The translations under genes and the position numbers were made by a program. Of a stretch of 45,390 bases of DNA, positions 2,047 to 19,709 are shown piece by piece. The stretch covers positions 1-45,390 of the forward strand of contig JACPAJ010000065.1 of the NCBI GenBank assembly GCA_016180865.1. The letters are read 5' to 3'. Position 1 is the stretch's first letter, and the number at the start of each line of letters is the position of its first letter. The DNA comes from Deltaproteobacteria bacterium (GTDB lineage Bacteria > UBA10199 > GCA-002796325 > 1-14-0-20-49-13). The notes under the pieces were generated by a model that saw nothing but the letters and a program-made list of their open reading frames with translations, searched no databases and had not been told where the DNA came from.

Positions 2047-2062
2047 TGGCATACTTCTTGCT
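2047..2062 (+). promoter_or_regulatory. Sigma-54 (-24/-12) promoter
   Basis: TGGCAT-ACTTC-TTGCT with GG at 2048-2049 and GC at 2060-2061 (N10 spacing). It lies 17-23 nt upstream of the GTG 2078 / ATG 2084 start. Confidence 0.7.
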
Positions 2063-2077
2063 TCATATATTGCGCCT

Positions 2078-3361
2078 GTGAAGATGAACCAACGTTTCAA
2101 ATATTACAGGCTTATGGCTTTGGCGTTGCTTATTGTAAGCTCGCCGGCTGTTTCTGCGACGGCCATTTCAGTTGCCATAGTTCCTATCAAAGACAATCTA
2201 TCAGATGATGAATCCGAAAGCTTGACTCACCCGTTCAATAAAGCGCTTTCATTAGAAGGGTTAAATGTTGTTTCACAGGAAAAAGTGGAAGCCGTCTTGA
2301 ACTATCATAAGCGCGATCCTGAAAATGATAAAGTGAGAGAAGCGGAAATTTCAATCGCCAAGGCAAGACAGAGTTATTACGATTTTGAGTATGAACGGGC
2401 AAACGAGCAAATTAAAAAGGCAGTCGAATTGTTGGAGTCAGAGCCACAGCTTATTTCCGATGGTGGAAGAGTTCTTCGCGACGCGTACATTACCGGCGGT
2501 GTCATTATGGCCGCCGAAAAAGATGCCGGCGCATTGGCTGAAGATTATTTTGCCAAAGCGCTTAGAATAGATCCGCAATATGAACTAAGCCGGAAAACGT
2601 TTTCGCCATCTGTTCTTAATGTTTTTAACGCAGCAAAGAATAAAATTCTGAACCATCCGCTTGGCTCGGTTGAAATTTCTTCAGACCCGAAAGTTGCAAA
2701 AGTGTTTGTTAACGGAATTCAAAAGGGCGTTACACCGGCTACTATGCCAGATTTGCCCGAAGGAATTTATAATGTTTCGGTAAGAGCCAATAACTACAAA
2801 AGCGTTGAAAAAGAGATAATAATTAGAGGTCATGAAACATCAAAACTGAATTTTAAACTTCAATGGGCATATTCCCAAGCAAAAGAGGCTGCGGCTCTTT
2901 CCGATGATGCCTACACACAAACGGTTGAAGGCGTAAGGGCGGCTGATCTGCTGAAAGTCGATAAAGTTGTATTGATCGACGCCGATGAAAAGAAAAACGG
3001 CAGCGGAGTAATAACTGTGCGGATGGTTGACCGGGAATTTCGGGCTTCGCATCATCCGGTAATTGTCAATCATTCTGCGGATGAAAAAGCCTATGTAAAC
3101 AATCTGGCCGAAACCGCGGCGATTATAGCGAAACAGGCAGGAATCAATATCTTGGATAATGCCGAAAAACATTTAGATGCAAAGGGAACAGGTGATCCGA
3201 TTATTCTCGGAAAACGGAGTGCCGGATTTTCCAAAAAACCGTTTTTATTGATGGCAGCCTCGGGTGTGCTGGCGGCAACGATAGGCGCTTTGGCTTCGGC
3301 GGGTTCGGGAGGCGCGGAAAATAACTCATCCACAGGGAGCGTTCATGTTCAATTTAAATAG
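2078..3361 (+). CDS. Secreted TPR-like plus PEGA-domain protein with a C-terminal TM segment
   Basis: 427-aa ORF with a signal peptide (LMALALLIVSSPAVSA). It has a TPR-like AKALRIDPQYE and a PEGA domain (VEISSDPKVAKVFVNGIQKGVTPATMPDLPEGIYNVSV). The C-terminal hydrophobic segment is LLMAASGVLAATIGALA. Confidence 0.8.
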   Translation: MKMNQRFKYYRLMALALLIVSSPAVSATAISVAIVPIKDNLSDDESESLTHPFNKALSLEGLNVVSQEKVEAVLNYHKRDPENDKVREAEISIAKARQSYYDFEYERANEQIKKAVELLESEPQLISDGGRVLRDAYITGGVIMAAEKDAGALAEDYFAKALRIDPQYELSRKTFSPSVLNVFNAAKNKILNHPLGSVEISSDPKVAKVFVNGIQKGVTPATMPDLPEGIYNVSVRANNYKSVEKEIIIRGHETSKLNFKLQWAYSQAKEAAALSDDAYTQTVEGVRAADLLKVDKVVLIDADEKKNGSGVITVRMVDREFRASHHPVIVNHSADEKAYVNNLAETAAIIAKQAGINILDNAEKHLDAKGTGDPIILGKRSAGFSKKPFLLMAASGVLAATIGALASAGSGGAENNSSTGSVHVQFK

Positions 3362-4112
3362 ATATCAAGCTGGAATCGCATGTTTATTTGTTTTGTTTGC
3401 ATCATGCGGCGCGGATTTTTCCGATTGGCAGAGCTCCGGAGCAGAAACCGGGGCCGTTAAGGCGATTATTATCGGCTCTCAATCTTTTAATCCGAATATT
3501 TCTCACGGAAAGATTGTTCAATATAAAGTGACGATCAGCGGCAGCGATTTTTCCGAGCCGATAGTTAAAACGTTCGATGGCGCCGAAGAATCCGGAATTA
3601 TTGAAGGTGTTCCTATAGGAGACAATAGAGCATTGAAAGTGGAAGCCATTAATCAGAATAATATAAAAATCCGCGAAGGCGAAGCAGAAGGGCTGGAAAT
3701 AACGGCAGGAGAAGCGGCAGAAACAGAAGTGAAAATGGAGTCTGTTCCCGTCTTCGCCAATTTGAACGATGGAAACATAATTCCAAACACCCAGTTTAAG
3801 GTGAGGATCTTTTCCGATCCAGCCGAGCAGATAGAGGTTGAGGATGAATTTAACGGCATGATCCTTCCATTGGCGGACGCCGATCTTAATTCGGCTGAAA
3901 TTTTCCCCGATATAAGCAGCGGTTTTGCCGATATTAAGCCAGCGCTTCTTCCGCCCGGCGGGCATAATTTTACGGTCAAAAATGTCAATACAGGCCGAAC
4001 GGCGGCAGTTGCAATAAGATTGACGGACGGGACAAAATTAATTTCAGCGCCGTTATATAGCGGCAGCTCAATAAAAGTCGGTCGTATCGGCAAAACTTTG
4101 CTTCGGAAATAA
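3345..4112 (+). CDS. Lipoprotein, function unknown
   Basis: 255-aa ORF with lipobox LFASCG. It overlaps the upstream gene by 17 nt. Confidence 0.7.
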   Translation: MFNLNRYQAGIACLFVLFASCGADFSDWQSSGAETGAVKAIIIGSQSFNPNISHGKIVQYKVTISGSDFSEPIVKTFDGAEESGIIEGVPIGDNRALKVEAINQNNIKIREGEAEGLEITAGEAAETEVKMESVPVFANLNDGNIIPNTQFKVRIFSDPAEQIEVEDEFNGMILPLADADLNSAEIFPDISSGFADIKPALLPPGGHNFTVKNVNTGRTAAVAIRLTDGTKLISAPLYSGSSIKVGRIGKTLLRK

Positions 4113-4124
4113 ACGAGAGGGATT

Positions 4125-5705
4125 ATGAAACTAATAATATATTTTGTGATTTTGGCAGTAGCGTTTTCATCGTGCGGCGGAGGGGGCGGCGATTCGGTTA
4201 ATGAAGAAGATTCCGGTGAAACCGAAAATAATGCAGCCGTTATTGAAAACGCCGATTCAGCGGAACTTTTGATAACGCAGGAAGAAGAGCCGGTAACTAA
4301 TACAGCATCCGATGGAAATCCTTCAACAAACGAAGCAAAACCTGCAGAAACCGCAACAATAACATTAGATGCAGATAAAGACGGAGTGCCGGACGATGCC
4401 GATAATTGCCCATTGGCGGCAAATCTCGATCAAAAAAATTCTGATTTTGAATATTATGAAAAGGGAATAAAGACCCCTGAAGGAAAAAACGTTGAGCCCG
4501 ATTCAAACGGCGATGCCTGTGACGGCGACTTGGACGGTGACGGTGCAAATGTAACATATGTCGGAACTTTCGGTTCAGATGTGAATCCGGGGACGTTTTA
4601 TGAGCCGGCGCTTACGCTGCAAAAAGGGATGAAAATCGCCCTTAAAAATGGAAACGACGTTTATGTTTCGGCCGGCACATATAATGCCGACGGAATAATA
4701 TTCGCATCCGGCATTGATATTTACGGCGGCTTTGCGGATGGCTACGGCGATCGCAAAACCCATTCGGAAAGCAAGCTGTTTAAAACGGCGCTTGTTAACA
4801 GCCTTAGCCCGATAACAATAAATGTCCAAGCTTCAACCGGAACTGTCAAGCTGGACGGATTTTATATTTATAATAATGCTGCAGATGAGGGCGCAGGCGG
4901 AGAGCTGCCCGATACCGATGATTATGGATGCAATCAGGCAACGGTATATTCCAATGGCGGAAATATAATGCTTTCGAATAATGAAATCAGCGGAAGCCCT
5001 CTTAGCATGAGGCCTTGCGGCGTATTAATCGGAGGCGGAACGATTGCTGATTTATCGTCAAATTTTATCGATGCTTCCGGGGATGAAGACGCGGTTGCGG
5101 GCACGGCCGCGGCAATAGTTGAATCTGACGCCGTTCTTTCAAATAATATTCTTGTAGCAGGCTCCGGTAAACACAGCAGGGCCTTAAGGTTGATGGATTC
5201 CGATGCCTTGATATTAAATAATACGATTGACGGGTCTTCGGATTCGGTAAATCCAAAGACCGCTTATGGCATAGAATTTTCGGGAGGCTCGTTTACATTA
5301 ATCAATAATATTGTATATACGGCAGATGCCGACGATCAGACCGCATTGATCTGCATCGGAGATTCGCCGTCGAATTCAAAAATCGAAAATAATATCCTGA
5401 CGACCTTTCCAAACACGGGCATGAATGCTGTGCTGGCGGATTGCGACGGAAATTTTATATGGACATCCGATTTTATTGAATCGAAGGAACTTTATCTTGA
5501 AGGAGCTATCGTAAAGAATAACAGTTCGTTCTCCGGCTTAAGTATTGCCGGTCTGCTGAACGAAGATTATAGTCCGCTGGCGGAAGAGGCCGTTGACACA
5601 GGCAAAAATCTTAATGATTCCATATATGGAAATATCGCAGCGGATTTTTATGGAAATCCAAGGCCGTCGGGCAGCGGATTTGATATGGGAGCAATCGAAA
5701 AATGA
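4125..5705 (+). CDS. Lipoprotein with thrombospondin type-3 Ca-binding repeats and a right-handed parallel beta-helix domain
   Basis: 526-aa ORF with lipobox AFSSCGGGGG. The TSP3-like repeats are DADKDGVPDDADNCP and DSNGDACDGDLDGDG. The periodic beta-helix repeats are NNEISGS, NNILVAGS, LNNTIDGS, INNIVY and ENNILT. The C-terminal end is FDMGAIE. Confidence 0.8.
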   Translation: MKLIIYFVILAVAFSSCGGGGGDSVNEEDSGETENNAAVIENADSAELLITQEEEPVTNTASDGNPSTNEAKPAETATITLDADKDGVPDDADNCPLAANLDQKNSDFEYYEKGIKTPEGKNVEPDSNGDACDGDLDGDGANVTYVGTFGSDVNPGTFYEPALTLQKGMKIALKNGNDVYVSAGTYNADGIIFASGIDIYGGFADGYGDRKTHSESKLFKTALVNSLSPITINVQASTGTVKLDGFYIYNNAADEGAGGELPDTDDYGCNQATVYSNGGNIMLSNNEISGSPLSMRPCGVLIGGGTIADLSSNFIDASGDEDAVAGTAAAIVESDAVLSNNILVAGSGKHSRALRLMDSDALILNNTIDGSSDSVNPKTAYGIEFSGGSFTLINNIVYTADADDQTALICIGDSPSNSKIENNILTTFPNTGMNAVLADCDGNFIWTSDFIESKELYLEGAIVKNNSSFSGLSIAGLLNEDYSPLAEEAVDTGKNLNDSIYGNIAADFYGNPRPSGSGFDMGAIEK

Positions 5706-6145
5706 GGATTCAATTTTTAATTCTTGCCTTAGCCTTCTTATGCAATGCATGCGCCGGACATGCATCTACAAGAGCCCCCTCTCGGGTGTCCCCAAATCCC
5801 TCCTTAGAGAGGGGGCTTCTGCCTCGCGTCTTTTTTCCGTTCGATTCGGATTTTCTGACGCCGGAATCTTCCAAAAGCATAAAGTATAACATCGATTGGA
5901 TGAATGAAAATTCAGCCGCGTACATAATTCTTGAAGGTCACTGCGATGAAGTCGGTCAAAGCGAATATAATATGGAGCTTGGCGATAAAAGGGCAAGGGC
6001 TGTCGAATCTTATATGATAGAGCATGGCATTCCCGAAGAACGAATTATTATGATTGTAAGCTATGGCTCCGAAAGGCCGTTGAATTTGGGCCATGAAATA
6101 AAGGATCTTCGCGAAAACAGAAGAGTTGAATTTATCGTGAGATAA
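5702..6145 (+). CDS. OmpA-family peptidoglycan-associated lipoprotein (Pal-like)
   Basis: 147-aa ORF with the OmpA_C motifs FPFDSDFL, LEGHCDEVGQSEYNMELGDKRA and NRRVEFIV. It has an N-terminal Cys-containing signal (FLCNAC) and an ATGA overlap with the upstream gene. Confidence 0.8.
   Translation: MRIQFLILALAFLCNACAGHASTRAPSRVSPNPSLERGLLPRVFFPFDSDFLTPESSKSIKYNIDWMNENSAAYIILEGHCDEVGQSEYNMELGDKRARAVESYMIEHGIPEERIIMIVSYGSERPLNLGHEIKDLRENRRVEFIVR
5774..5816. repeat. GC-rich hairpin element lying in-frame in the Pal-like linker
   Basis: GCCCCCTCTC (5774-5783) pairs with GAGAGGGGGC (5807-5816) around a 23-nt loop. It is translated as RAPSRVSPNPSLERGLL. Confidence 0.6.
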
Positions 6146-6157
6146 TTCGGAGGTTTT

Positions 6158-7069
6158 ATGATGAAAAAAATAATAATTTTTACTATGTGCGCAATTTTTT
6201 CTAGCATGAGTTTTGCCGGAGAGCCGCCGCAGATTCCGCCGTATTTTAATTATTCAGGCTCTTTAACCGACGATGGAGGCAATCTGCTGCCTGACGGAAC
6301 GAAAAATATACGGTTTAAAATAGTAAATTCGGCAGGAGGTACTATTTTTGAGGAGACGCAGGACGTGGAAATCATTAAGGGCGAAATAAGCGCAATAGTC
6401 GGAAACGGGATAAATCCATCAACCGGCGCTCCCTCCGCGGGAATTCCCGCTGCATCCATTGAACCGGGCGATACGCTTTTTTTCCAAATAGAAATAGACG
6501 GCGAGCAAATATACGATCCTATGGAGATAGTCTCCTCTCCGTATGCGATTTGGGCCGATACAGCTTTAAGGCTGCCGGATGGATCGATTACAGGCGCCAT
6601 GCTCGGCAAAGGCATAATTACAAAGGAACATCTTAATCAGGAGCTGGCAAGCGCCATATTTCCGGATGGCGTTCCAAAAGCGCTGCTTCCAAGCGATACT
6701 GTATATACAAACAGCATTCAAAGCACTTCCGGAGCCGGCAAAGTCGGCGTGACATCCGATTTTATTTATTCAGGCTCTCAAACAGTGCAGGGTGTTCTAA
6801 AAGATTTTGATATAGCCGTTAAAAAAAGGCAGCAGGAATCGGAGTGGATTAAAGAGGATTACGGAGCGCAAATTGGCGCTGAAGCGGCAGCAAGGAAATT
6901 AGATGATGATGGTATTAAAAATCAGATTAGCGTGCAAGTTGGCGCCGAAGCATCGACAAGACAATCAGAAGATAATGAGATAAAAAATCAGCTTGGCGCT
7001 CATGCTATGGCAACGTCCGCGCACGGCATTGTCGGAAATGTTGTCTATATTGATCAATCCGGTAATTAA
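6158..7069 (+). CDS. Secreted tail-fibre-like protein
   Basis: 303-aa ORF with a signal peptide. The N-terminal pattern (YFNYSGSLTDDGGNLLPDGTKNIRFKI...EETQDVEIIKGEI...SSPYAIWADTA...DGSITGAMLGKG) is one I associate with tail-fibre-domain proteins. Two tandem ~20-aa repeats (IGAEAAARKLDDDGIKNQI and VGAEASTRQSEDNEIKNQL) lie near the C-terminus. Confidence 0.65.
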   Translation: MMKKIIIFTMCAIFSSMSFAGEPPQIPPYFNYSGSLTDDGGNLLPDGTKNIRFKIVNSAGGTIFEETQDVEIIKGEISAIVGNGINPSTGAPSAGIPAASIEPGDTLFFQIEIDGEQIYDPMEIVSSPYAIWADTALRLPDGSITGAMLGKGIITKEHLNQELASAIFPDGVPKALLPSDTVYTNSIQSTSGAGKVGVTSDFIYSGSQTVQGVLKDFDIAVKKRQQESEWIKEDYGAQIGAEAAARKLDDDGIKNQISVQVGAEASTRQSEDNEIKNQLGAHAMATSAHGIVGNVVYIDQSGN

Positions 7070-7856
7070 CGGAGCCGTTTCGGGAGAGTTTGACGGGGCT
7101 CTGCCGCCGATCGGATCGATCATCCCGTTTTATGATTTTGACGGTGCGCTGGTATTTGATGCTTCCAGATGGAAATACTGCGACGGGACGAATTATGATT
7201 TTGGCGGCAATTTAGGCGTTAAAATGCTGCCCGATATGTCAGGAAGATATTTAGTCGGCTTTGGAGGAGATGGTGGCGGCAACCTTGGAACGGCAGCATG
7301 GGAGACCGATGCGGTTGGAAATGCAGGCCATGTAATTGACTTGAAACATAACCATGCCAATGCGCTTTCAACTGATGCGCCGACAACATCCATAACCGGC
7401 TCGCATAGTCATATGGTTGATCCGCATTCTCACTCGCATAGCCACACAGTCAACAGCCATAATCATACATTGATGGAGGATGGTGAGCATGCGCATGACG
7501 GGAAGACTAATGGCATGTCTGCGATGGCCACACATAAATCATCTCCATACGAAACTTATGATGATACAAAGGGATGGCAGAAAAATGGCCCGTATTTGGG
7601 TGTTGATACATATGCTTTGCAGGGCCATCACGACCATGATATTAGCAAAGGCGGTTTGCATACTCATACGGTAAAAGAGACAACTGCAAACACTTCAAAA
7701 GACGAGACCCTATCTTCACCCGGCACAAATTCAACCGGAGATCATGCGCATACGGTCAACCACACTCACACAATCACCAACGCTTACGCTTTTTCTTCGG
7801 CGCAATCGATACAGCCGAGAAGCATTCGCGTTCGCTACATCATGAGGGTGAAATAA
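6993..7856 (+). CDS. Phage tail-collar-domain protein (MdpB-like) with a His-rich region
   Basis: Collar-domain pattern: GSIIPFYDF...WKYCDGTNY...LPDMSGRYLVGFGG...SIQPRSIRVRYIMRV. There are many HxH motifs (SHSHMVDPHSHSHSHTVNSHNH, GDHAHTVNHTHT). The true start is uncertain: it could be ATG 7038, TTG 7050, or a fusion with the upstream ORF through a 1-nt frame change near 7060-7070. Confidence 0.7.
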   Translation: MALMLWQRPRTALSEMLSILINPVINGAVSGEFDGALPPIGSIIPFYDFDGALVFDASRWKYCDGTNYDFGGNLGVKMLPDMSGRYLVGFGGDGGGNLGTAAWETDAVGNAGHVIDLKHNHANALSTDAPTTSITGSHSHMVDPHSHSHSHTVNSHNHTLMEDGEHAHDGKTNGMSAMATHKSSPYETYDDTKGWQKNGPYLGVDTYALQGHHDHDISKGGLHTHTVKETTANTSKDETLSSPGTNSTGDHAHTVNHTHTITNAYAFSSAQSIQPRSIRVRYIMRVK

Positions 7857-7857
7857 A

Positions 7858-8193
7858 ATGAAAAAACTAATATTATTAATCTGTCTAATTTGGCCTCTAG
7901 CGTGCAAAGCCGATGTCCTGCCTTTTATCCAAAAAATGTTCAGCGAGCTGCCGGACAATTATGCGATTGTCGTGAAATATGTAACCGGCAAAGAAGAAAC
8001 GATTGAGATTGCAAGCCATAATCTCAATAAAGAGCTTGGGATATTCGAATTTGTGACGAAGGACGATATCTGGAGCTGGATACCGATTTCAAGCATCCAG
8101 CGCCTTGAATTTGACAAAAGGTTTTCAAAAATAATGGCGATAAAAGAAGAGGAAGAGAAGAAAAAAGAATCGCAAACAGTTAAATCACCATGA
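7858..8193 (+). CDS. Small secreted protein or lipoprotein, unknown function
   Basis: 111-aa ORF with a signal peptide carrying Cys (LIWPLACKA) and a Glu/Lys-rich tail. It starts 1 nt after the upstream stop. Confidence 0.6.
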   Translation: MKKLILLICLIWPLACKADVLPFIQKMFSELPDNYAIVVKYVTGKEETIEIASHNLNKELGIFEFVTKDDIWSWIPISSIQRLEFDKRFSKIMAIKEEEEKKKESQTVKSP

Positions 8194-9536
8194 ATCTTCC
8201 CTATCGGTTTGGGAGATATCTGCTTACTTCAAAAATCGCCGCCGGCGGCATGGCGGAAGTCTATCGCGCCAAATATTTTGGAGAAGGCGGATTCGTAAAA
8301 AAAGTCGCGGTTAAAAAAATCCTGCCGGCGCTTTCGTCGTCAAAAGATTTCGTCACAATGCTCTGCGATGAGGCAAAAGCGCTCGTAAAGCTCCAGCATA
8401 AAAATATCGTTCAAGTATATGAGCTTGGGAAGGACAAAGACTCGTATTATATTTCCATGGAATATGTTGACGGGGCCGATTTAAGGAAGCTGTTTAAAAG
8501 GGTCGTTTTGGAATCGCAGCTTATTCCATTAAAGTTTTCGTGTTTTGTTATCGGTGAAATCCTGCAAGCCATAGATTTTGCCCATAACCTCGGCATTATA
8601 CATCGCGATGTCAGCCCGCCAAACATTCTGATTTCATATAACGGAGAAGTGAAAGTTGCCGACTTTGGAATTGCAAAAGGAGGCCACAGGCAATTTGAAA
8701 CGGTGGTAACGGAGGTCAAAGGAAAATATTCCTATATGTCGCCGGAGCAGGCGGGAGGAAAGCCGGTGGATATCAGAACGGATATCTATGCGATAGGCGT
8801 AATTTTTTATGAGCTTGTTACGGGCAAGCGCCTCTTTGACGCGCCAAACGATTTTTTGGCAATAGAACAGGTGAAAAAATCCGAGCTGCCCGAAGGGTGG
8901 CAAATGTCTATGCCGGAGGAATTGAGTCAAATTATTTCGCACGCCCTCCGAAAGGAATCAACGGATAGATATTGCTCCGCTGCGGATTTTTTAGATGAAC
9001 TTAAACAATATATCGTAAAAAGCGGACTTGCCGCCGACTCGATGGAACTTTCACAATATATAAAAGATTTATTTAACAGTGAATATAAAAAAGACGCCAA
9101 TGAATTAAAACATAAGAAAAATACGCAAATTGATTATTTATGGGAGGGGGGCAAAAAAGAAGCGGAGAAAAAAAGCGGCAGAATAATCTCTTTTGCAAGT
9201 TTCACTATTATCTCAGCTTTGTTATTTTCTTCCGGTTCAAGCCTTAATAACAGCAAGAACATTGTTGAAGACAAGGATAAGCCGCTGGATTCTTTCGGAA
9301 CAATCAGCGTCCAGGCGCGTCCATGGGCGTATGTCTATATACCGGAAGCATTAGAAAAAAAAGAGACGCCGGTGAGAAATGTAAAATTAAAATCAGGAAA
9401 TTATATTTTAAAAGTTAATTACGAGCCGGATGATTTATGGCTTCAAAAAGAGATTACAATTTCCGATGCTAAACATGTAAAATGTTTTGCTGATTTTATA
9501 GAGCAGCATGCTTTGACATGCCAATCTTTTAGGTAG
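8190..9536 (+). CDS. Hanks-type Ser/Thr protein kinase with a TM segment and an extracytoplasmic PEGA-like domain
   Basis: 448-aa ORF with kinase motifs GGMAEVYRAK, VAVKK, HRDVSPPNILI, DFGIAK and YMSPEQ. The TM segment is IISFASFTIISALLFSS. The C-terminal PEGA-like segment is TISVQARPWAYVYIPE...LKSGNYILKVNY. It has an ATGA overlap with the upstream gene. Confidence 0.85.
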   Translation: MNLPYRFGRYLLTSKIAAGGMAEVYRAKYFGEGGFVKKVAVKKILPALSSSKDFVTMLCDEAKALVKLQHKNIVQVYELGKDKDSYYISMEYVDGADLRKLFKRVVLESQLIPLKFSCFVIGEILQAIDFAHNLGIIHRDVSPPNILISYNGEVKVADFGIAKGGHRQFETVVTEVKGKYSYMSPEQAGGKPVDIRTDIYAIGVIFYELVTGKRLFDAPNDFLAIEQVKKSELPEGWQMSMPEELSQIISHALRKESTDRYCSAADFLDELKQYIVKSGLAADSMELSQYIKDLFNSEYKKDANELKHKKNTQIDYLWEGGKKEAEKKSGRIISFASFTIISALLFSSGSSLNNSKNIVEDKDKPLDSFGTISVQARPWAYVYIPEALEKKETPVRNVKLKSGNYILKVNYEPDDLWLQKEITISDAKHVKCFADFIEQHALTCQSFR

Positions 9537-9542
9537 TTTCTC

Positions 9543-9566
9543 GTCAACATATTGACTGACCGTCAA
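9543..9566. promoter_or_regulatory. Interlocked palindromes GTCAA-N4-TTGAC-N5-GTCAA, candidate activator site
   Basis: GTCAAcataTTGACtgaccGTCAA lies about 75-95 bp upstream of the sigma-54 -24 element at 9638. Confidence 0.3.
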
Positions 9567-9636
9567 TTATTTACCACAATGAGAAGTGTTGCTTCATTAT
9601 TATTGTGTAATATCAACCGGTTATAATTAATAGTAT

Positions 9637-9652
9637 TGGCATATTTGTTGCT
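9637..9652 (+). promoter_or_regulatory. Sigma-54 (-24/-12) promoter
   Basis: TGGCAT-ATTTG-TTGCT with GG at 9638-9639 and GC at 9650-9651. It is followed by SD GGAGG (9666-9670) and ATG 9679. Confidence 0.7.
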
Positions 9653-9678
9653 ATATTCTTCATTCGGAGGAATGCCAC

Positions 9679-11349
9679 ATGAATATTTATAGGACATTTA
9701 TAATATTTGGCATGTTATCTTTGCTGACAAATTGCGGCGGCGGTTCGTCCGCGCCTACATCTCCTGTGCAGGTTCCGACCGAAATATCCTTTGCAAATGA
9801 GAATGAGTATGGCGGCGGCGTAGTGATTCCGCTTGCTAAGAGCATAACTGCAACATCCGATGCCGATTTTACAAGCGGAGAAGTTGTCTTTACCGATTCA
9901 TCTACAGGCGAAGAAGATACAACCGGGGTTTGCGGGACGGCGTCCGTTGACGGGGAGACCATCACCTTAACAGGGCCGGATTCTTGGCCCAACGCGACGT
10001 CACAATGTTCGGTAAGCTTTCTCTATGATGACTCGGCAATTCCGGTTCAAGTGGCGAGCGCATCAATTTCACCCATTGGAAAAAATATTGCCAAAGCCGA
10101 TTCCGACAGCACTTCTTTAACAGCTTATTATGATACAAGCGATACGGTGTTGGAAGGGAGCGGGCTTGCGATAACAAGCGCAACGCTGCAGGAGAATGCA
10201 ATAGTCCCGACCGTGTCGGCATATGGCGGATATGTTCATGCCTGCTGGCTGACTCTTGCGAAAAGCGGAACAAATCAGAGCACCGCAAATTATAATACCA
10301 ATAAAATGGTTTATTCCAGAAGCGCCGATAACGGCGCCACATGGACAGATCCGGTTACAATAGCCGACCTCGGATCTGTTACCGTTCCAGTCACTAACGC
10401 CACTTATGGTTTGGCGGAACGCTGCCAGATAAAAGCCGGAGAGGATTCCGCCGGAAATGGGTTGATTGCAATAGTTGAAAAATATAAGAACAGCGCCGCT
10501 ACGGCACAGAAGAATCTGGTGCTAAAGTTAAGCCGCGACAATGGCGATACGTGGAGCTCCGGAGCAACAGTTGTGGAAAATACCGCTATGAATGACAGAG
10601 TGGCTATTTTGATCAATTCGGACGCGGTTCATATTGCTTACAATGCCGCTGCCAGCAAACATATTGTGCCATGCACGGTTAGCGGCAGCACCGCAACATG
10701 CGGAAGCGATTATACAATAGCCGGCGCATCGTCAAATTATGATGACGAGGTGAATCTTGCGGCTTATGGAAGCAATATATATGCGATATATACCGATAAC
10801 AGCTACAGCGCGGGAAATATTTACAATGATGTCGTTATAAAAGCCCTTTCATATTCGGATGGCTACACCCTTACAAATACCTATCAGCTTACATCAGCAG
10901 AAGCCGGCACCGGCAATGCTCTATATCCGTTTATTGCAGCCGATAACAGCGGCAGGCTGGTTGCCACCTATTCTTATGACAATGTTTATAACGCCGTCGT
11001 TGCAATCGTTGATACATCGACTGGAGATATTACAAGGGGCCAGGTAAACGATGCGGATCTTGGCGAAACGCCGCATCTTGTAAAACCGTTTGTGAGCGCC
11101 GCCAATCACTACCATTTTTTCTACGGCCTAATTGTTAATACATACCAGGGTTATTACAGGATGTGCGACAGCGAACTTATTTGTGCTGATGCGGTTCCGA
11201 TAGATATACTGGCTCTCCCGAACATTGAAGGGCTTGAAGTGGACCGTGCCGGGCGCGTTTATTTGCCGGCAAGTCCATATGAAGGCGAGAACGATCTTTA
11301 TCAATCGGGCTCAGTCCTTTTGGGAAGATTTACTCTTGGTTCATTATAA
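9679..11349 (+). CDS. Lipoprotein with BNR/Asp-box (sialidase-like beta-propeller) repeats
   Basis: 556-aa ORF with lipobox LLTNCGGG. Asp-box motifs are SRSADNGATWTDP and LSRDNGDTWSSG. Confidence 0.75.
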   Translation: MNIYRTFIIFGMLSLLTNCGGGSSAPTSPVQVPTEISFANENEYGGGVVIPLAKSITATSDADFTSGEVVFTDSSTGEEDTTGVCGTASVDGETITLTGPDSWPNATSQCSVSFLYDDSAIPVQVASASISPIGKNIAKADSDSTSLTAYYDTSDTVLEGSGLAITSATLQENAIVPTVSAYGGYVHACWLTLAKSGTNQSTANYNTNKMVYSRSADNGATWTDPVTIADLGSVTVPVTNATYGLAERCQIKAGEDSAGNGLIAIVEKYKNSAATAQKNLVLKLSRDNGDTWSSGATVVENTAMNDRVAILINSDAVHIAYNAAASKHIVPCTVSGSTATCGSDYTIAGASSNYDDEVNLAAYGSNIYAIYTDNSYSAGNIYNDVVIKALSYSDGYTLTNTYQLTSAEAGTGNALYPFIAADNSGRLVATYSYDNVYNAVVAIVDTSTGDITRGQVNDADLGETPHLVKPFVSAANHYHFFYGLIVNTYQGYYRMCDSELICADAVPIDILALPNIEGLEVDRAGRVYLPASPYEGENDLYQSGSVLLGRFTLGSL

Positions 11350-11428
11350 CCAAGCGCCGCTTTTGGCTGCCACAGGCGCCATTTTATTCTTGTAGATTTT
11401 GGGCGGTCTAGTGTAATATCCGCTACCT

Positions 11429-13120
11429 ATGTGTCCGGAACAGCCCCAAATCATAGAGGCTCAAAGCAAATCCTATAAAGTAATTAAGACGCTTGGAGCG
11501 GGCGGGACATCGATTGTCTATCTCGCCAACGACGGCAAAAGAGACGTTGCGCTTAAAATCCTCGGCGAAGATGTCGATGCGACATTTAAAGAGAGGTACA
11601 TTCAGATTCTTAAGAATGAGTTCGAGGTTTTAAGCAGGCTGCGACATCCGAATATAGCGGAAGTTTACGATTTTGAATATGCGCCGAAGCTTGGCAAATA
11701 TTTCTTCACAACGGAATATATCAACGGCGCCGATATATATAATTACACGAGTGCCGCGGATTTTAATTTAAAGGAGGATCTTTTTGTCCAGCTGCTTTTG
11801 GCGCTCGATTATGTCCACAGATGCGGCATTGTCCACTGCGATATCAAATGCGGAAATGCCCTTGTTACTCAGCTAAAGAAAACGCCGGTAGTGAAACTTG
11901 TCGATTTCGGTTTTGCCACCAGAAAGCTTGCATCAACCGGGCTTGTTGTGGGAACTCCGCATTATCTGGCGCCCGAGCTTCTTGTTGGAGGGAAGGAAAT
12001 AAATCATAAAATAGATATCTATGCCGCGGGGATTGTTTATTACAGGCTGCTGCACAGAGCGTACCCGTGCGTGTCATCTGAAGTTAATGAGATCATTAAG
12101 TGGCACAGGGAACATTCCCCGGTCTGTTATTCCGAAAGCCTTCCGGATTACACGAGGCATCTTATATCGCGGATGATAGAAACCTATCCGCCCGACAGAA
12201 TAGAATCCTGCGCAAAAGCGATAGAATTCATTAATTTCCGCACTGAGGGGAAATATAAAAAAATCACCGAAAAGATTGTGGGCCTTCAATTCAGAGAAGG
12301 GCCGCTTGTCGGAAGAAGCGATCTTCTGGAAGAGGTGAACTCTTTGTTTGCATCGCTTAAATCCCAAAAATCTCCGAAGCAATACGGATATATTTTTACA
12401 GGGCCTCAGGGAATAGGCAAAAGCCGCCTGATGAGGGAAATAAAGTATAGGGCGGAACTTGAAGAGATTCCGTTTCGCGAAATCGCCTGCGTTGAAGGCA
12501 AGGATAATGTCGCGGAGTTTATGGATAAATTCAGGGAAATTGAGAAGCCAAGGGAGGCAAAATCAGGCGAAGCAAACGAAAAGAAACTTTTTCATATTCA
12601 GTGGATAAATTCAGTCATTGCTAAGTTTAAAACCGGAGGGCTGGTTGTTGTAGCCGACGATGTGCAGGCCGGAGGCTCGGCCTTTATTGATTTTTTGAAA
12701 TTATTTGAAGAAAGAATCAGAGTCAATAGAGCCGACGGCAGCCTGCCGCTTGTAATTCTTATCGCATCCAGGCCGAAATCGGAACTGGACGATGTTGCCG
12801 TCCGGTGGTTCGACCAGACGAAAATACCCAAAAAAGATCTTGGAACGCTGAAAGACGACGAGGTCAAGGATTATATGGAAAAAATCGGCGCGGCGCAGTT
12901 CAAAGACATAGTGCCGCAAGCCGTTTCATTCTCCGGAGGAGTTCCCGGGTTATTGGAAGCTTATTGCCAGCATATTTTAGCGTTTGGGAAATCTGCCAAG
13001 CCTCCTGATAATCTGGCGCAGAGCTATCTTGACAGGATAAAACTGCTGCCTCAGCCGGCGGTTAAATGCGTGGAGTTTTTATCTGTTGCAAGACGCTGGA
13101 ACAGATCCAAAAACTTGTGA
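11429..13120 (+). CDS. Ser/Thr protein kinase fused to a P-loop AAA/STAND-type ATPase domain
   Basis: 563-aa ORF with kinase motifs GAGGTSIVYLA, VALK, HCDIKCGNALV, DFGFA and YLAPE, then Walker A GPQGIGKSRL and Walker B VVVADDVQ. It probably continues into the next ORF (see findings). Confidence 0.8.
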   Translation: MCPEQPQIIEAQSKSYKVIKTLGAGGTSIVYLANDGKRDVALKILGEDVDATFKERYIQILKNEFEVLSRLRHPNIAEVYDFEYAPKLGKYFFTTEYINGADIYNYTSAADFNLKEDLFVQLLLALDYVHRCGIVHCDIKCGNALVTQLKKTPVVKLVDFGFATRKLASTGLVVGTPHYLAPELLVGGKEINHKIDIYAAGIVYYRLLHRAYPCVSSEVNEIIKWHREHSPVCYSESLPDYTRHLISRMIETYPPDRIESCAKAIEFINFRTEGKYKKITEKIVGLQFREGPLVGRSDLLEEVNSLFASLKSQKSPKQYGYIFTGPQGIGKSRLMREIKYRAELEEIPFREIACVEGKDNVAEFMDKFREIEKPREAKSGEANEKKLFHIQWINSVIAKFKTGGLVVVADDVQAGGSAFIDFLKLFEERIRVNRADGSLPLVILIASRPKSELDDVAVRWFDQTKIPKKDLGTLKDDEVKDYMEKIGAAQFKDIVPQAVSFSGGVPGLLEAYCQHILAFGKSAKPPDNLAQSYLDRIKLLPQPAVKCVEFLSVARRWNRSKNL

Positions 13121-14838
13121 CAATGGGCTTTGCGAATATCGCATATCCTTCGATGGTGGTAAATCTTTCCAATAAGGCGATCGGCCAGACGGTAAAATCG
13201 AATCTCGACAAAAAAACATTTGCCGATCTTTCTATAAAACTCGGGAATTGGCTTGAAAAAGCGGATAGCGCCGCCATTGCAGAGATTGCCGACCATTTCA
13301 GCGATGCTGAAAATCCGGATAAAGCGCTTGTTTTTTCGGAAACGGCTGCAAAACAATTCGAAGAGCAGTTTAATCTTTCGGAAGCGTCCAAATATTTTAA
13401 TCAGGCTTTAAAATTTGCGGTAAATGAGGAGAAAAGGAAGAATCTTATAAGAGCAATCTCTCGGGCCGATATCATGATGGGAAGATATAAAGAGGCTATT
13501 GCCAAGCTGGAAGGCTTGTTAAAAAATGGAGATGAAACCCTTGAAAATTACCGCATCCTCGGAATGGCCTATTCAAAAATGCGCGATTTTGCCCATGCCA
13601 AAAGCTGGTATGAAGAAGGCCTCAAAAAAATGACCGATGAAACCGCAATCACGGATATCGTCAGATTCAAAAACAGTCTTGGCAACGTGAGTTTTTATAC
13701 GGGAGACCTGGAAAATTCGGAAAAATATTTTACCGAGGCGATTGCCGATGCGACGGAATGCCTGCTTCTTAATAATAATCTGGGGTTGATCTTAAGCGCA
13801 AAGGGAAATTACGAGCAGGCGATAAGGTTCTATGACGGCAGAAAGCGCTTTCTCTCCGCCAAAAAGAATAAAGGCGCGCTGGCTCTCTGCCACGCCGATT
13901 GCGGTTATATTAATATGACTCATAACCGCGTTTGCGATGCGATACCGGAATTCGAACAAAGCTATAAACTGGCGCTGGAGATGGGGGATTTATATAATAT
14001 TCTGGTTGTTCTTGGAAATCTTGTGCGCTGCCATCAGCAGGTGGCTGATTTTACAAAGGCTCTGGATTATGCCCTTAAAGGGCTGGAAGTGGAAGCCAGC
14101 ATCGGGTCTATAGATGAAATCGCCCAGAATCATCTTACGATCGGCATTCTTTATGAAGCCGTCGGCGTGCTGGATCTTGCCAAAAAGCATATAGGAATGG
14201 CTAAAGACAGATTTGTTGCGCTGAATAACATGACGATGGTCGGATGGTGTCATCTCACGATGTCTTATATATGGAAAGATCTGGATAAAAAAGACGATGC
14301 TAATAAAGAAATAGAAAAAGCTTTGAAAATTGTGACAGAGCTGAAGATTGAAGATCTTTTAGCATGGGTGCGGTTAAGCAAAGCAGAACTTCACATAGAA
14401 TATGGCGGATTAAAAGAGGCAGGAGAGATTATCGATAAAATTGCCGATCTAAAATTGAAAGAGTTTGAACTGAGAAAGAGAATGCTGAAGTTAAAACTGG
14501 GGAGCGCATCTGAGGCCGCTGCAAAAGAGGAGTTCAGAAAACTTATCGATGATTGCAGCGAATATCCGGAGCTTAAGTGGGAAGCATGCGCAGCTGCGGG
14601 ATACTATCTTGAACAAATTGGGCAGCCGGAAGAGGCGCTGTTTTTATTCAAGCAGTCGTTTGAAATAATAGAATCGATTGCTATCCGCCTGACGGAAGCT
14701 TATAGAGACAGCTATAAGAGCCAGCGTTTCAGATTGAAGATTGTCCAAAAATTTCAGCCTGATTTCAATGCGAAGCCTGCAGCTCAAATTTCTCCGGATG
14801 CCAGCATTATCGACGGAAAAACGTCCGAGATAAAGTGA
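13066..14838 (+). CDS. TPR-repeat protein, probably the C-terminal part of the upstream kinase-ATPase
   Basis: 590-aa ORF containing many TPR-like units. If it is independent, the start would be GTG 13117 (a GTGA overlap with the upstream stop) or ATG 13123. Confidence 0.7.
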   Translation: MRGVFICCKTLEQIQKLVTMGFANIAYPSMVVNLSNKAIGQTVKSNLDKKTFADLSIKLGNWLEKADSAAIAEIADHFSDAENPDKALVFSETAAKQFEEQFNLSEASKYFNQALKFAVNEEKRKNLIRAISRADIMMGRYKEAIAKLEGLLKNGDETLENYRILGMAYSKMRDFAHAKSWYEEGLKKMTDETAITDIVRFKNSLGNVSFYTGDLENSEKYFTEAIADATECLLLNNNLGLILSAKGNYEQAIRFYDGRKRFLSAKKNKGALALCHADCGYINMTHNRVCDAIPEFEQSYKLALEMGDLYNILVVLGNLVRCHQQVADFTKALDYALKGLEVEASIGSIDEIAQNHLTIGILYEAVGVLDLAKKHIGMAKDRFVALNNMTMVGWCHLTMSYIWKDLDKKDDANKEIEKALKIVTELKIEDLLAWVRLSKAELHIEYGGLKEAGEIIDKIADLKLKEFELRKRMLKLKLGSASEAAAKEEFRKLIDDCSEYPELKWEACAAAGYYLEQIGQPEEALFLFKQSFEIIESIAIRLTEAYRDSYKSQRFRLKIVQKFQPDFNAKPAAQISPDASIIDGKTSEIK

Positions 14839-15144
14839 TTATGAAACTTTCCAAGGCTCTCTTTTTAGGCCGCGAGCCTTCAGAATCAAACTTGCAATTT
14901 GTTGAAGATGCACAAGTATCTTCACTTTTTCTTCGATGGATAGCCCTGCCAAATCCATGCGTCTTTGCCTTTTAGCCGAGAAGAGACGTTCAATATGTCT
15001 TTTATTTATTGCGTTCAAAATATTGTTTCCATTTCTTTTTAAGAGAATGACGCTCCAAGATCGATTCCAGCTTGCCTTGATCGAATAAGGCCTCATCCAG
15101 AAGTTTCCAAATGCGCTCGCGATCCTTTGGCCTATTTGTGTCAA
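14839..15144 (-). CDS. Doubtful ORF; only the last ~39 codons (from ATG at 14958) look protein-like
   Basis: The TTG-started track ORF overlaps a more convincing alternative frame at 15002-15142 (see the finding at 14839-15473). A possible small ORF is MDLAGLSIEEKVKILVHLQQIASLILKARGLKREPWKVS. Confidence 0.2.
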   Translation of the reverse strand: MTQIGQRIASAFGNFWMRPYSIKASWNRSWSVILLKRNGNNILNAINKRHIERLFSAKRQRRMDLAGLSIEEKVKILVHLQQIASLILKARGLKREPWKVS

Positions 15145-15446
15145 GCGTATTTTACAGCCTCTTCTATCAGGGAGTTATACACAGGCAGGAACTGAACCGG
15201 GATGCCCTCGATCATCACATGTTCTTTTTCGGCACGATATCCTTTGGATTCAAGGTGTTTGTAAAGTGGGGCAATGTCGAGCAATGCGGATGTTTTTTTT
15301 GCAGAAGGAAGGAATACAAAAATGTCCACGTCAAACGTAAGTGCGGGTTCAGTATAAAATAGAAGGGCCGTGGCGCCGCCCATGGCGTAGCCTTGAATGA
15401 TGCCATCTCTTTCCAGCGCATTGATGACCTGCAGAGTTTTCTTCAT
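15141..15446 (-). CDS. Minimal nucleotidyltransferase-fold protein, apparently frame-disrupted at its 3' end
   Basis: The NTase signature GG-x13-DxD is present (MGGATALLFYTEPALTFDVDIFV). A C-terminal RPKDRERIWKLLDE segment continues in the +1 frame down to stop 15002-15004. The protein appears to be of the same type as the ORF at 43436-43960. Confidence 0.6.
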   Translation of the reverse strand: MKKTLQVINALERDGIIQGYAMGGATALLFYTEPALTFDVDIFVFLPSAKKTSALLDIAPLYKHLESKGYRAEKEHVMIEGIPVQFLPVYNSLIEEAVKYA

Positions 15447-15516
15447 TTCAACTACACATTAATCACAATTGTGCTTAAAAATCTATAAAAATTTGGTTAG
15501 GGCAGGTTTATCGGTA

Positions 15517-16821
15517 CTAATCCGCTCTCGGCCCCCAGTCGGGAAGGGTGCCGTTTCCTTTGGAAATTTTGACCTGATTTGAGCCGTCGGCGCGCATCAT
15601 ATATACTGCGGGGCCGCCGGACCGTGTGGAGCTGAATACTATAAATCTGCCGTCAGGCGACCATCTCGGGTGTTCGTTTGATCCGGAATCGATAGTCAGG
15701 CGCTGGATATTGGTACCATCGATATTCATAATGAAAATATCGAATGCGCTCGAATCCTGGCCGCAAAAAACGATTTTAGTTCCATCAGGCGAAATATCGG
15801 GCGAATCGTTATGAACTCCCACAAAGGTGAGCCTTCTGGCTTCGCCGCCGGCGACCGGCTCCGTATATACATGTAGGCGGCCTGCGCGCGTTGATGAATA
15901 GACCATCGTGCTTCCGTCCTTTGAAAAACGCGGCGCGATATTGATTCCGCCGTAATTTGTAATCTGCCTCACCTTTCCGGAAGAGTGATTTGTAGCGAGG
16001 ATTTCGGTAGAATCTCCCAGCGAAGAACTGAAGTAGAGAGTTTTATTATCAACGTACCATGCGGGCGTAATATTTGTGTTCTTATTTTTTGTAATTTGTT
16101 TTGAGGAGCCGGTTTTTACATCGCTGGCAAAAATTTCGGGATTTCCGCTTTTAAAAGAAGCGTATGCCAACTGGCTGCCGTCGGGCGACCATGCCGGACC
16201 TAAATTAATCGACGAGTCGCCGGTGATTTTTCGATTATTTTCTCCGTCAACGTCCATAACGTAAATTGATTTCCCTTTTCTTTCCGCGGAAGAATAGGCG
16301 ATTTTTGTGTTAAAAATTCCCCGCGTACCGGTCAAAGCTTCCATTATTTCATCGGAAAATCTGTGAGCGACGGACCTTATATCCTTTTCGTCGGCGGTAT
16401 ATTGCTTGCCCACCAGCATTTGCGCTGAGTAGGGGTCGAAAAGTTTCAGCTGGATTACATATTTGCCGCCTTCTTTTTTTATCAAGCCTTTTACCAGCGC
16501 GCCGGCTTCAATAGCGGTCCACTGCGAAAAATTTATCGTCTCTGCGGTGATATCGGTTCCCTGATCCAGAAAAGCCGATTCCGTTATGATGTCAAAATAA
16601 CCCGATAGGAGGAGGTCATTTTCTATGACCGAATGAATTTTTTCGGATTCGCTGTATAATCCCCTATAGCCGTCATAAATCACAGAGTGCGTAATTGCTA
16701 TCGGAAAGCGCTTGTCCGACGGCTGGTCCACCGGAATATAAATGCGCGCAGACGCAGATGAAGCAAAAAGGAGCAAGCAAGAGATAAGAAATAGAAATTT
16801 TTTCATATATTGTTTTGTCAT
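15517..16821 (-). CDS. tolB: Tol-Pal system beta-propeller protein TolB
   Basis: 434-aa ORF with a signal peptide and repeated WD40-like/TolB blades (P.WSPDG..., SPDGTKIVF, PRWSPDGRFIVFSS). It lies directly downstream of tolQRA. Confidence 0.9.
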   Translation of the reverse strand: MTKQYMKKFLFLISCLLLFASSASARIYIPVDQPSDKRFPIAITHSVIYDGYRGLYSESEKIHSVIENDLLLSGYFDIITESAFLDQGTDITAETINFSQWTAIEAGALVKGLIKKEGGKYVIQLKLFDPYSAQMLVGKQYTADEKDIRSVAHRFSDEIMEALTGTRGIFNTKIAYSSAERKGKSIYVMDVDGENNRKITGDSSINLGPAWSPDGSQLAYASFKSGNPEIFASDVKTGSSKQITKNKNTNITPAWYVDNKTLYFSSSLGDSTEILATNHSSGKVRQITNYGGINIAPRFSKDGSTMVYSSTRAGRLHVYTEPVAGGEARRLTFVGVHNDSPDISPDGTKIVFCGQDSSAFDIFIMNIDGTNIQRLTIDSGSNEHPRWSPDGRFIVFSSTRSGGPAVYMMRADGSNQVKISKGNGTLPDWGPRAD

Positions 16822-17583
16822 TTATGGTTTTAACCTCGGGTCGAATTCAATTAAAAATCCTTCGTTGTATGCCTCCCATTTCAATTTTTCCGCGGGCGTG
16901 TCAAAAGGGGAGGCCCTCTGAATCGCCCTGATGCAGGATGCATCGAAAGATGAATCGCCGGAGCGCTGTTCCCATTCGGTGGAAACGACCTCGCCGCTTT
17001 CGTTTATTATAACGACAATGCGCGCCTTGGGCCTTTGCCCTTCGGGAAGCTCATATAATTTCATCGGTATAATCCATTCCTGAATGATTCTGGCTCTGAT
17101 CATTGCTTGATACTTTACATATTCGGGATCGTCAATAGGAACCCGCAGAGGCTTGTCCGATGTGCCGTATTTATAGCCTTCGCCGCTCGCTCCAATCTGC
17201 GCCGCTTCGGGCTGCACAACCCTTTTCTTAAGCTTAACATCTATTTTTGCGAGCGCGGCCTTCATCTTCTTTTCTTCTTTTGTCAGCTTTTTTTCCTGCT
17301 TTACGGGTTTGGCCTGTTTAACCGTTTCTTTCATTACATCTTTCGGCTCTTCAGCTTCCTTCTGTTTTAAAAGATCTTTCTGTTCCTGAATCGTGCTTTT
17401 GGGGAGCGCTTCCGATTCTTTGAGCCCGGTTCCAATCTCTTCGCTTGTTCCGCGCGGAAGCTCCATCCATACCATCTGCAGAGGCCTGTCGCCAAACGGC
17501 CATCGCAGCATGAAAAGAATATGCGCAACCGCCGAATAAAAAAGCGGACGTGAAACATTTGGGACGTCCTGACGAGTGTGCAT
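16822..17583 (-). CDS. tolA: TolA-like protein (TonB_C-type C-terminal domain)
   Basis: 253-aa ORF with an N-terminal TM segment, a Lys/Glu-rich linker and a TonB/TolA-type C-terminal domain. Its position between tolR and tolB supports the call. Confidence 0.65.
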   Translation of the reverse strand: MHTRQDVPNVSRPLFYSAVAHILFMLRWPFGDRPLQMVWMELPRGTSEEIGTGLKESEALPKSTIQEQKDLLKQKEAEEPKDVMKETVKQAKPVKQEKKLTKEEKKMKAALAKIDVKLKKRVVQPEAAQIGASGEGYKYGTSDKPLRVPIDDPEYVKYQAMIRARIIQEWIIPMKLYELPEGQRPKARIVVIINESGEVVSTEWEQRSGDSSFDASCIRAIQRASPFDTPAEKLKWEAYNEGFLIEFDPRLKP

Positions 17584-17594
17584 TATAGTAGATG

Positions 17595-18724: not shown

Positions 18725-18848
18725 TGGTTTTATCTCCTTGTTAGGGGGAGCATAATCCAACAAAATTATCGGCATGTCAAGAAACCTTGAAGGGAGCAAA
18801 ATTTACTTTGACTATTGCAGTATTTATAGCTAGTTGGGGCCTAAGTTT

Positions 18849-19643: not shown

Positions 19644-19709
19644 TTGAACGGTTTTTAAAAACGTGCTAAAAGGAATAATGCGAGTTCATATGTTGAGACA
19701 TTCTAAAAA

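Follow-up and report, generated by a model that had tools for sequence, protein, structure and literature searches.

The complete 45,390-nt contig JACPAJ010000065.1 (hereafter the window), part of a metagenome-assembled genome that carries the NCBI label "Deltaproteobacteria bacterium" and stems from an uncultured groundwater bacterium, harbors nine tightly packed open reading frames (ORFs), all on the + strand and spanning 2078-9536, behind a sigma-54 promoter (Table 1). We consider it about an even call that this locus is a sigma-54-dependent operon for one secreted, probably trimeric adhesive fiber and for the envelope proteins by which this fiber is held. The fiber gene is a chimera with a tip of phage origin, and the block to which it belongs recurs in the same order in other genomes. 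An initial annotation, made from the letters of this DNA, had described a one-strand run of ORFs with overlaps or gaps of at most 12 nt, and all of its coordinates and junctions were reproduced: a 17-nt overlap at 3361/3345, ATGA overlaps at 5705/5702 and 8193/8190, gaps of 12 nt at 4112/4125 and 6145/6158, and a gap of 1 nt at 7856/7858. Its count of nine holds for ORFs but not for genes, of which there are eight, two of the ORFs being parts of one fiber gene; the conserved core comprises four or five.

The two ORFs in question, ORF5 (6158-7069) and ORF6 (7038-7856, in the +1 frame), had been described as separate tail-fiber and tail-collar proteins. They are instead the shaft and the tip of one chimeric fiber. 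The homologs of ORF5 are encoded in one piece (460-498 aa) and have the first ~300 residues in common, followed by a conserved joint (VVGT...Q.L.NK...P.IT.G) and then by unrelated C-terminal domains; ORF5 ends exactly at this joint and, as called, continues out of frame past 7045 to a stop at 7069. A closer relative is locus L049, a JGI contig of 22 kb. Its ORF2 shares 77% identity with that of the window, and the same operon position is filled there by an uninterrupted 604-aa ORF. Residues 1-314 of this fiber align with residues 1-296 of ORF5 at 78% identity, residues 315-335 form a 21-aa joint (GTTDEQTLSNKTITSTTLEEP), and residues 336-604 align with the ORF6 frame at 79% identity, starting at ILINPVING. 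Because L049 carries both parts as a single ORF, we conclude that ORF5 and ORF6 are one fiber gene, interrupted in the window by a frame break at the joint. A separately encoded tip protein, as in the phage protein P0034 (242 aa), was rejected since the L049 ORF is continuous and ORF6 has neither a signal peptide of its own nor a convincing ribosome-binding site. For the same reason, the claim that every product except the kinase domain is exported is correct with ORF6 read as part of the fiber and wrong for ORF6 alone. An exact-sequence database look-up of ORF5 returned no record.

The break in the window is at least as likely to be an assembly error as real decay, because a kinase-AAA-TPR gene is also split in the window and continuous in L049. 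In the window, a kinase+AAA_16 ORF (11429-13120) and a TPR ORF (13066-14838) overlap by 55 nt in different frames, and in L049 this region is one continuous ORF, with 864 aa read without a stop at 87% identity. The overlap (13066-13120) is another frame break of this contig and suggests assembly indel errors. As a practical caution, the two-ORF fiber reflects a frame break and a second break lies 6 kb away, and the contig should therefore not be taken at face value. A further copy of the locus, on the second metagenome-derived contig L004 (GCA_016193505.1), matches the window at 99.98-100% identity across the greater part of what the two share and at ~97% over 7267-8306. Of the joint, L004 retains the larger portion (GTTDVQTLSNKTIKSTTLE), but window positions 7046-7266 are missing from it. 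This is one of three indels between the two sequences, all of them inside the operon (5640-5795, 6444-6544 and 7046-7266), and one of the three leaves the genes for TSP3 and OmpA fused or truncated; they represent either strain-level decay or an assembly artifact concentrated in the locus. Local switching of tip cassettes (a shufflon) was also considered and rejected, as the L004-specific joint is absent elsewhere in the window and no relevant repeats are present.

At least 204 proteins make up the family of the tip, which is without Pfam annotation. One member, P0008, is encoded immediately behind the Mu gp48 and baseplate J genes of a myovirus tail module; another, P0034, comes after genes for baseplate and fiber on a 98-kb phage-like contig; and 32 IMG/VR viral contigs encode the family as well. 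The phage link is drawn from these metagenomic contexts and IMG/VR only, and tblastn of ORF5 and ORF6 against GenBank phages gave no match. The phage members of the family share a QTLTNKTL..P.ING joint just ahead of the collar, and since this joint is common to phage and cellular fibers it accounts for the position of the graft. Several His columns of the tip are at least 90% conserved in a 40-member alignment; in T4 gp37, HxH motifs coordinate iron (PMC11705849). The initial annotation had assigned a tail-collar domain with a His-rich region. The HxH motifs bear out the latter, and against viral models (BFVD) the tip model retrieved tail-collar/MdpB proteins (E 6e-6 to 8e-4, template modeling score about 0.2). 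The Pfam family Collar (PF07484), however, did not match the window tip even at E<=10, and only 4 of 40 relatives matched it weakly (best E 0.028). In the AlphaFold monomer, which has a mean predicted local distance difference test (pLDDT) score of 57.9, only the collar-like core is confident (84-91 in residues 21-70 and 261-272). Its PDB fold matches were tail fibers, but at E>=0.07, and PDB sequence searches with the tip and fiber profiles returned nothing meaningful.

The base of the fiber has a different affiliation. The only curated model that it matches is NF053851 (Bdello_MAT_N), which describes the ~130-aa beta-rich N-terminal domain of the mosaic adhesive trimer (MAT) fibers of Bdellovibrio, with E 1.3e-5 and 25.1 bits against a cut-off of 60 and with coverage of model positions 13-79 of 162. 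The same model was matched, again below cut-off, by 7 of 7 proteins in the first homolog set and, at E<=1e-3, by 88 of 96 sampled members of the fiber family (best 1.2e-10). In an exhaustive HMMER search of clusters at 50% identity, this family numbered 173 at E<=1e-30, a figure that rose to 669 when the threshold was relaxed to E<=1e-10. The majority are 350-600 aa long and match from residue 1 to about 230-300, and alignments display a mosaic layout of ~300 conserved residues up to the joint followed by unrelated C-termini. On sequence similarity, the N-terminal domain is probably a distant, below-cut-off relative of the MAT N-domain, and we read the proteins as a putative large sister family of MAT fibers with conserved bases and variable tips. 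The fiber N-domain was not found in IMG/VR viral contigs. Autotransporter and YadA-anchor domains are absent from every fiber, the C-termini being small tip domains.

Having defined the fiber, we asked how its neighbors are conserved, with ORF2 as probe. The window was compared with nine independent loci (L001, L009, L013, L014, L015, L016, L049 and L050/L051), of which L009 is labelled Bdellovibrio sp. The shared order is sigma-54 motif, PEGA protein, ORF2-like lipoprotein, TSP3/beta-helix lipoprotein, OmpA_C lipoprotein and MAT_N-like fiber, with block proteins 27-78% identical to those of the window. These ten loci uphold the initial view of a conserved, sigma-54-preceded envelope block centered on a fiber and a Pal-like peptidoglycan binder. 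The proposed co-occurrence across genomes is thus seen for the Pal-like gene and the fiber, but it does not extend generally to the kinase (3 of 10 loci), the 111-aa gene or the collar tip. After the fiber, other loci carry a DUF6340/TPR protein, an M10 peptidase, or nothing.

The first core gene encodes the PEGA protein, whose orthologs occupy the same position in the other loci at 28-38% identity. Its annotation as a TPR plus PEGA protein was sound (Pfam PEGA 2.9e-12), with TPR-type matches that are weak in the window and a TPR_2 match in the L009 ortholog. The signature gene of the block is ORF2: all ten contexts examined (10/10) show the block around it. As first annotated, it is a lipoprotein of no known family, with no match in Pfam, NCBIfam or PHROGs and no help from PDB in naming it, and its 61 homologs, all about 250 aa, are unannotated. 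Its AlphaFold model (pLDDT 87.8) has tandem FN3/Ig pairs as top PDB fold matches, so that ORF2 models confidently as two tandem FN3/Ig-like sandwiches on a predicted lipid anchor. ORF3 was correctly recognized as carrying a thrombospondin type-3 repeat of the Ca-binding kind (TSP_3 2.1e-7), but its beta-helix is indicated only through orthologs (DUF1565 in L009 and L013) and a choice_anchor_Q match of 20.8 bits against a cut-off of 25; an ortholog is present in 7 of 9 independent related loci and missing in L015 and L016. ORF4 has orthologs in all loci (38-64% identity). Its identification as an OmpA_C/Pal-like protein is borne out by the OmpA match (5.1e-19) and by its best NCBIfam match, Pal TIGR02802, though this scores 103.4 bits, below the equivalog cut-off of 125.35. 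Through the OmpA_C domain, ORF4 also matches the models for TpgA (4.4e-8) and TraB (NF033763, 1.2e-13).

Profile searches left ORF2, ORF5, ORF6 and ORF7 without a Pfam family, and a PHROGs search of the block proteins gave matches for the OmpA and kinase proteins only. For the FN3 lipoprotein, Pfam, NCBIfam, PHROGs and PDB gave nothing; neither this protein nor the fiber could be placed in a curated family, and we found no paper describing a combination of PEGA, FN3, TSP3 and OmpA_C proteins with a fiber. The statement that no described system has this composition therefore survives for the block as a whole, but the fiber does have a precedent in its probable distant MAT relatives. The initial annotation overlooked this link as well as the frame break, and its interpretation went in the right direction but reached too far. 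Novelty lies in the operon context and in the collar/HxH tip, and the fiber would represent a new, shorter branch of MAT-type chimeric fibers. The FN3 lipoprotein (61 homologs) and the fiber family (at least 173 clusters at 50% identity) are both families to annotate.

Two variants of the block were observed in other loci. A gene for a 23S_rRNA_IVP-like (four-helix-bundle) protein lies between the TSP3 and OmpA genes in L009 (9150-9479) and L013 (13191-13586), the two products being 35% identical to each other. L050/L051 carries an expanded block (5726-19339) at the orthologous chromosomal position, with extra genes for a 642-aa unknown protein, an RDD-family membrane protein and a 1006-aa unknown protein and with a 133-aa gene after the fiber position. 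The fiber position itself encodes a 570-aa protein, assigned by position and not by alignment.

The strict sigma-54 pattern TGGCAY-N5-TTGCW occurs at 4 sites in the window, every one on the + strand, whereas shuffled sequence predicts 0.15. They sit 11-26 nt before the starts ATG 1668, GTG 2078, ATG 9679 and GTG 21016, a spacing that implies leaderless or very-short-leader mRNAs for these exported and lipoprotein genes. For the operon, transcription is predicted to start near 2073, leaving a leader of 5-11 nt ahead of the PEGA gene. In nine other loci, including L001, L009, L013-L016, L049 and L050, an equivalent motif immediately precedes the PEGA gene. Its distance to the start, annotated or likely, is mostly 2-37 nt, so that very short leaders are implied there as well. 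The initial assignment of a consensus sigma-54 promoter at 2047-2062 is therefore well founded in spacing, placement and conservation across loci. The L001 ortholog of the 21016 gene is also preceded by a sigma-54 site (19673-19688). No Sigma54_activat domain was detected in the 30 larger window ORFs that were scanned. The only palindromes resembling activator sites are at 1431-1487, two adjacent copies of AAGTGTCGGACACTT with 27-nt arms that are 89% complementary. They lie 560-615 nt upstream of the operon promoter and ~155-210 nt upstream of the 1641 promoter, and from their sequence and position they look like a candidate enhancer-binding-protein site that would fit the 1641 promoter better than the one at 2047.

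Table 1. Promoter elements, genes and fiber segments of the operon in window coordinates.
Feature	Position	Strand	Description
Sigma-54 (-24/-12) promoter	2047-2062	+	TGGCATACTTCTTGCT; perfect GG-N10-GC, 16 nt ahead of start codon
Four sigma-54 sites	1641-1656, 2047-2062, 9637-9652, 20984-20999	+	Each just 5' of an ORF
PEGA protein, 427 aa	2078-3361	+	Signal peptide, weak TPR-like helical region, PEGA beta-sandwich at residues 196-262, C-terminal hydrophobic segment
FN3 lipoprotein (ORF2), 255 aa	3345-4112	+	Invariant lipobox Cys21, two tandem FN3/Ig-like beta-sandwich domains (modeled)
TSP3/beta-helix lipoprotein (ORF3), 526 aa	4125-5705	+	Thrombospondin type-3 Ca-binding repeat, probable right-handed beta-helix
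Pal-like OmpA_C lipoprotein (ORF4), 147 aa	5702-6145	+	OmpA domain, lipobox-like N-terminus; core gene
Fiber gene, 5' part	6158-7045	+	Signal peptide, MAT_N-like beta-rich N-domain, conserved shaft, repeat/coiled region to joint ...HGIVGNVV
Break point	7045-7046	+	62 nt missing relative to L049 (DNA alignment), encoding most of joint GTTDEQTLSNKTITSTTLEEP; frame shifted
Fiber gene, 3' part (ORF6 frame)	7047-7856	+	Collar-like module (PPIGSIIPFYDF...RYLVGFG...QSIQPRSIRVRYIMRV) enclosing 11 HxH motifs
Exported 111-aa protein (ORF7)	7858-8193	+	Charged C-terminal tail; no family match
Membrane Hanks-type Ser/Thr kinase, 448 aa	8190-9536	+	Cytoplasmic kinase domain, one transmembrane segment, ~90-aa outer beta-domain

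The last two genes of the operon are accessory. ORF7 is found only alongside the collar/HxH tip, in the window, L004 and L049 (87% identity in the latter), and is absent from the other loci; our guess is that it acts as a tip-specific accessory factor. A lipoprotein was ruled out, because its Cys16 is not conserved and is Gly in L049, and so was a phage tail-fiber chaperone, as ORF7 has no similarity to genes downstream of the phage homologs. The kinase occurs in just 3 of the 10 loci, namely the window, L001 (48% identity) and L049, and is hence lineage-specific, which removes it from the general system in which the initial annotation had given it an input role. Its description as a membrane kinase agrees with the Pkinase match (6e-45) and the presence of VAVK and DFG. 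The proposed PEGA-like outside domain, which has two conserved Cys, is represented by a PEGA match of E 0.066, the only Pfam match on the C-terminal part and the sole addition from domain-by-domain scans at E<=10. The catalytic loop HRDVSPPN (residue 138) has Ser for the canonical Lys of HRDxKxxN, a variant kept in the orthologs of L001 (HRDISPQN) and L049.

The rest of the window is ordinary chromosome with tolQRAB, PFK, thiolase, FtsK and XseA, and a scan of the larger ORFs found no other phage genes in the 45 kb. Directly upstream of the operon, a 77-aa ORF (1668-1901) with its own sigma-54 promoter has weak similarity to PqqD and the recognition element of ribosomally synthesized and post-translationally modified peptides (Pfam 0.003; TIGR04248 1.3e-4). 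L004 has this ORF too, L049 probably does (as a 67-aa ORF), and L001 does not. Two further sigma-54-preceded genes encode a 556-aa lipoprotein (9679-11349), with a weak BNR/sialidase-like match (E 2.5e-4) and 85% identity in L049, and an exported protein of 730 aa (21016-23208) that contains Q/P-rich repeats and matches no family.

From these elements we propose the following working model. The fiber would follow the plan of Bdellovibrio MAT fibers, in which a signal peptide and a conserved beta-rich N-domain are followed by the shaft and, at the C-terminus, by a tip that can be exchanged. This lineage has swapped its tip, at the conserved joint GT..xQTLxNKT..P.I.G, for a phage tail-fiber receptor-binding module with a collar-like fold and 11 HxH motifs predicted to bind metal. 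The Pal-like OmpA_C lipoprotein may link the outer membrane with peptidoglycan, the FN3 lipoprotein and the PEGA/TPR protein may serve as spacers or scaffold, and the TSP3/beta-helix lipoprotein may be an optional Ca-stabilized surface component. The N-domain of the fiber, which would probably assemble as a trimer, would dock on this peptidoglycan-tethered, outer-membrane-associated platform of four partners, and the tip would face outward, with the surface of another cell as its presumed ligand. Expression would be gated by a sigma-54 activator encoded outside the window, and the membrane Ser/Thr kinase with its PEGA-like outer domain could provide a second input in this lineage only.

Several observations weigh against this model. 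Protein contact, trimer formation and surface exposure are predictions of the model, and the block encodes no outer-membrane translocator (beta-barrel or secretin) that would account for the route of the fiber to the surface. Every MAT_N match falls below the curated 60-bit cut-off and covers only about half of the model. The fiber gene of the window is frame-broken, so that this particular copy may be non-functional. A fiber homolog (31% identity) in L008 (9887-11149) stands alone beside a gene for a SurA-like peptidyl-prolyl isomerase, outside any PEGA/OmpA block, and fiber paralogs therefore exist away from the operon. Finally, sigma-54 sites also precede other envelope genes in the window, so co-regulation alone is no proof of a complex. 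The last two points would equally suit a set of co-regulated envelope proteins without a dedicated complex, in which the fiber is one secreted adhesin attached elsewhere and the shared promoter reflects the seemingly wide use of sigma-54 for lipoprotein and envelope genes in this lineage. Four sigma-54 sites in 45 kb, two of them before the unrelated lipoprotein and exported-protein genes at 9679 and 21016, and the generic nature of FN3, PEGA and TSP3 folds agree with such independence. We nevertheless think it unlikely: even where identity falls to about 27-30%, the ten loci keep strict gene order and co-occurrence, their frames overlapping or nearly touching, and none of the 10 contexts examined has the FN3 lipoprotein without the block.

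The missing translocator would be of no concern if the block were a periplasmic envelope-integrity module linked to Tol-Pal, with ORF4 as Pal, the PEGA/TPR protein as a CpoB-like factor and the "fiber" as a periplasmic strut. A small OmpA_C lipoprotein best matching Pal and a TPR-containing partner lie near tolQRAB genes that have no pal of their own. The tolQ-tolR-tolA-tolB genes are on the - strand at 15517-18799, 6 kb downstream of the block; in L001 they directly abut it, tolB being convergent with the operon kinase gene; and neither in the window nor in L001 does pal or cpoB follow tolB, two 101-aa non-OmpA ORFs (14839-15446) being found instead. However, ORF4 lies about 9.4 kb from tolB (15517-16821, - strand) and on the opposite strand, and so does not occupy a Pal-type position downstream of tolB; it also scores below the Pal equivalog cut-off. 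Tol adjacency is missing in L009, L013, L014, L015 and L016, and for this reason we rejected Tol-Pal membership of the whole block. Hypervariable tips that include a phage receptor-binding module point, moreover, to an external and variable ligand, and altogether a periplasmic role of this kind appears quite improbable. The phage ancestry of the tip family, the broken frame and the further deletions in L004 could also be taken to mean that a decayed prophage or tailocin remnant landed by chance in an envelope operon and has no cellular function. We regard this as very improbable, given that the 45-kb window has no other phage gene, that the N-terminal two thirds of the fiber are absent from viral contigs and kept at the operon position in every locus, and that L049, with 78-79% identity, carries the fused gene unbroken. 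An adhesive fiber held by its operon partners remains our preferred reading.

Polymorphic surface recognition proteins encoded together with an OmpA-domain partner are familiar from the outer-membrane exchange receptor TraA/TraB of Myxococcus. The likeness is conceptual only, as the block has neither a PA14-like TraA domain nor a MYXO-CTERM signal. The nearest precedent for the fiber itself is the MAT family, whose members are displayed on the surface of the Bdellovibrio predator (Caulton et al. 2024, PMC10769870). Both have a signal peptide ahead of a beta-rich N-domain, which in the present fiber is probably related to that of MAT (NF053851), as well as a shaft with phage-like modules and exchanged C-terminal tips, and like the MAT NS74 subgroup the present fiber is devoid of an S74 domain. 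They differ in length (about 350-600 aa in this family against roughly 600-1,150 aa for MAT fibers, with matches below the family cut-off), in the tail-collar/HxH tip and in the conserved sigma-54 operon with PEGA, FN3, TSP3 and OmpA_C partners. A further difference is that the hosts here are uncultured. According to PMC10769870, the invariant N-domain of MAT fibers presumably attaches to some component of the cell surface yet to be identified, and the main text of that report does not contain the words "collar", "operon", "OmpA" or "PEGA". The occurrence of a MAT-like fiber beside four envelope proteins in a conserved operon hence offers a short list of candidates for this partner.

A mechanistic parallel comes from the trimeric adhesin AtaA of Acinetobacter sp. 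Tol 5, which is held and stabilized by the co-operonic, peptidoglycan-binding OmpA_C protein TpgA (PMC12523085). In both cases a surface fiber, predicted in ours, is co-encoded with an OmpA_C peptidoglycan tether, but the likeness is one of mechanism and not of family: the fiber described here has no autotransporter beta-barrel anchor, and ORF4 has no TpgA N-terminal adhesin-binding domain. The published view of the MAT N-domain and the stabilization of AtaA by co-operonic TpgA make our model plausible. One step further, the PEGA/TPR protein, the tandem FN3 and Pal-like lipoproteins and, where present, the TSP3 lipoprotein might form a cell-surface dock for MAT-type fibers and possibly their export route, with groundwater relatives of Bdellovibrio displaying phage-tipped fibers for prey or host recognition. 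We put this forward tentatively and with considerable doubt. If true, the dock would be a new outer-membrane display pathway without any known translocator.

The tip, finally, resembles the tips of phage tail fibers (T4 gp12/gp37 type; MdpB/COG4675), in which collar-like motifs likewise flank His-x-His repeats. Unlike in phages, the module is fused here to a cellular, signal-peptide-bearing fiber, and the envelope operon that encodes it is chromosomal, without phage genes in its vicinity. The locus is a clean case of a cellular fiber that has received its receptor-binding tip from phage at a joint common to both kinds of fiber, and is of relevance to the transfer of recognition specificities between phages and cells.

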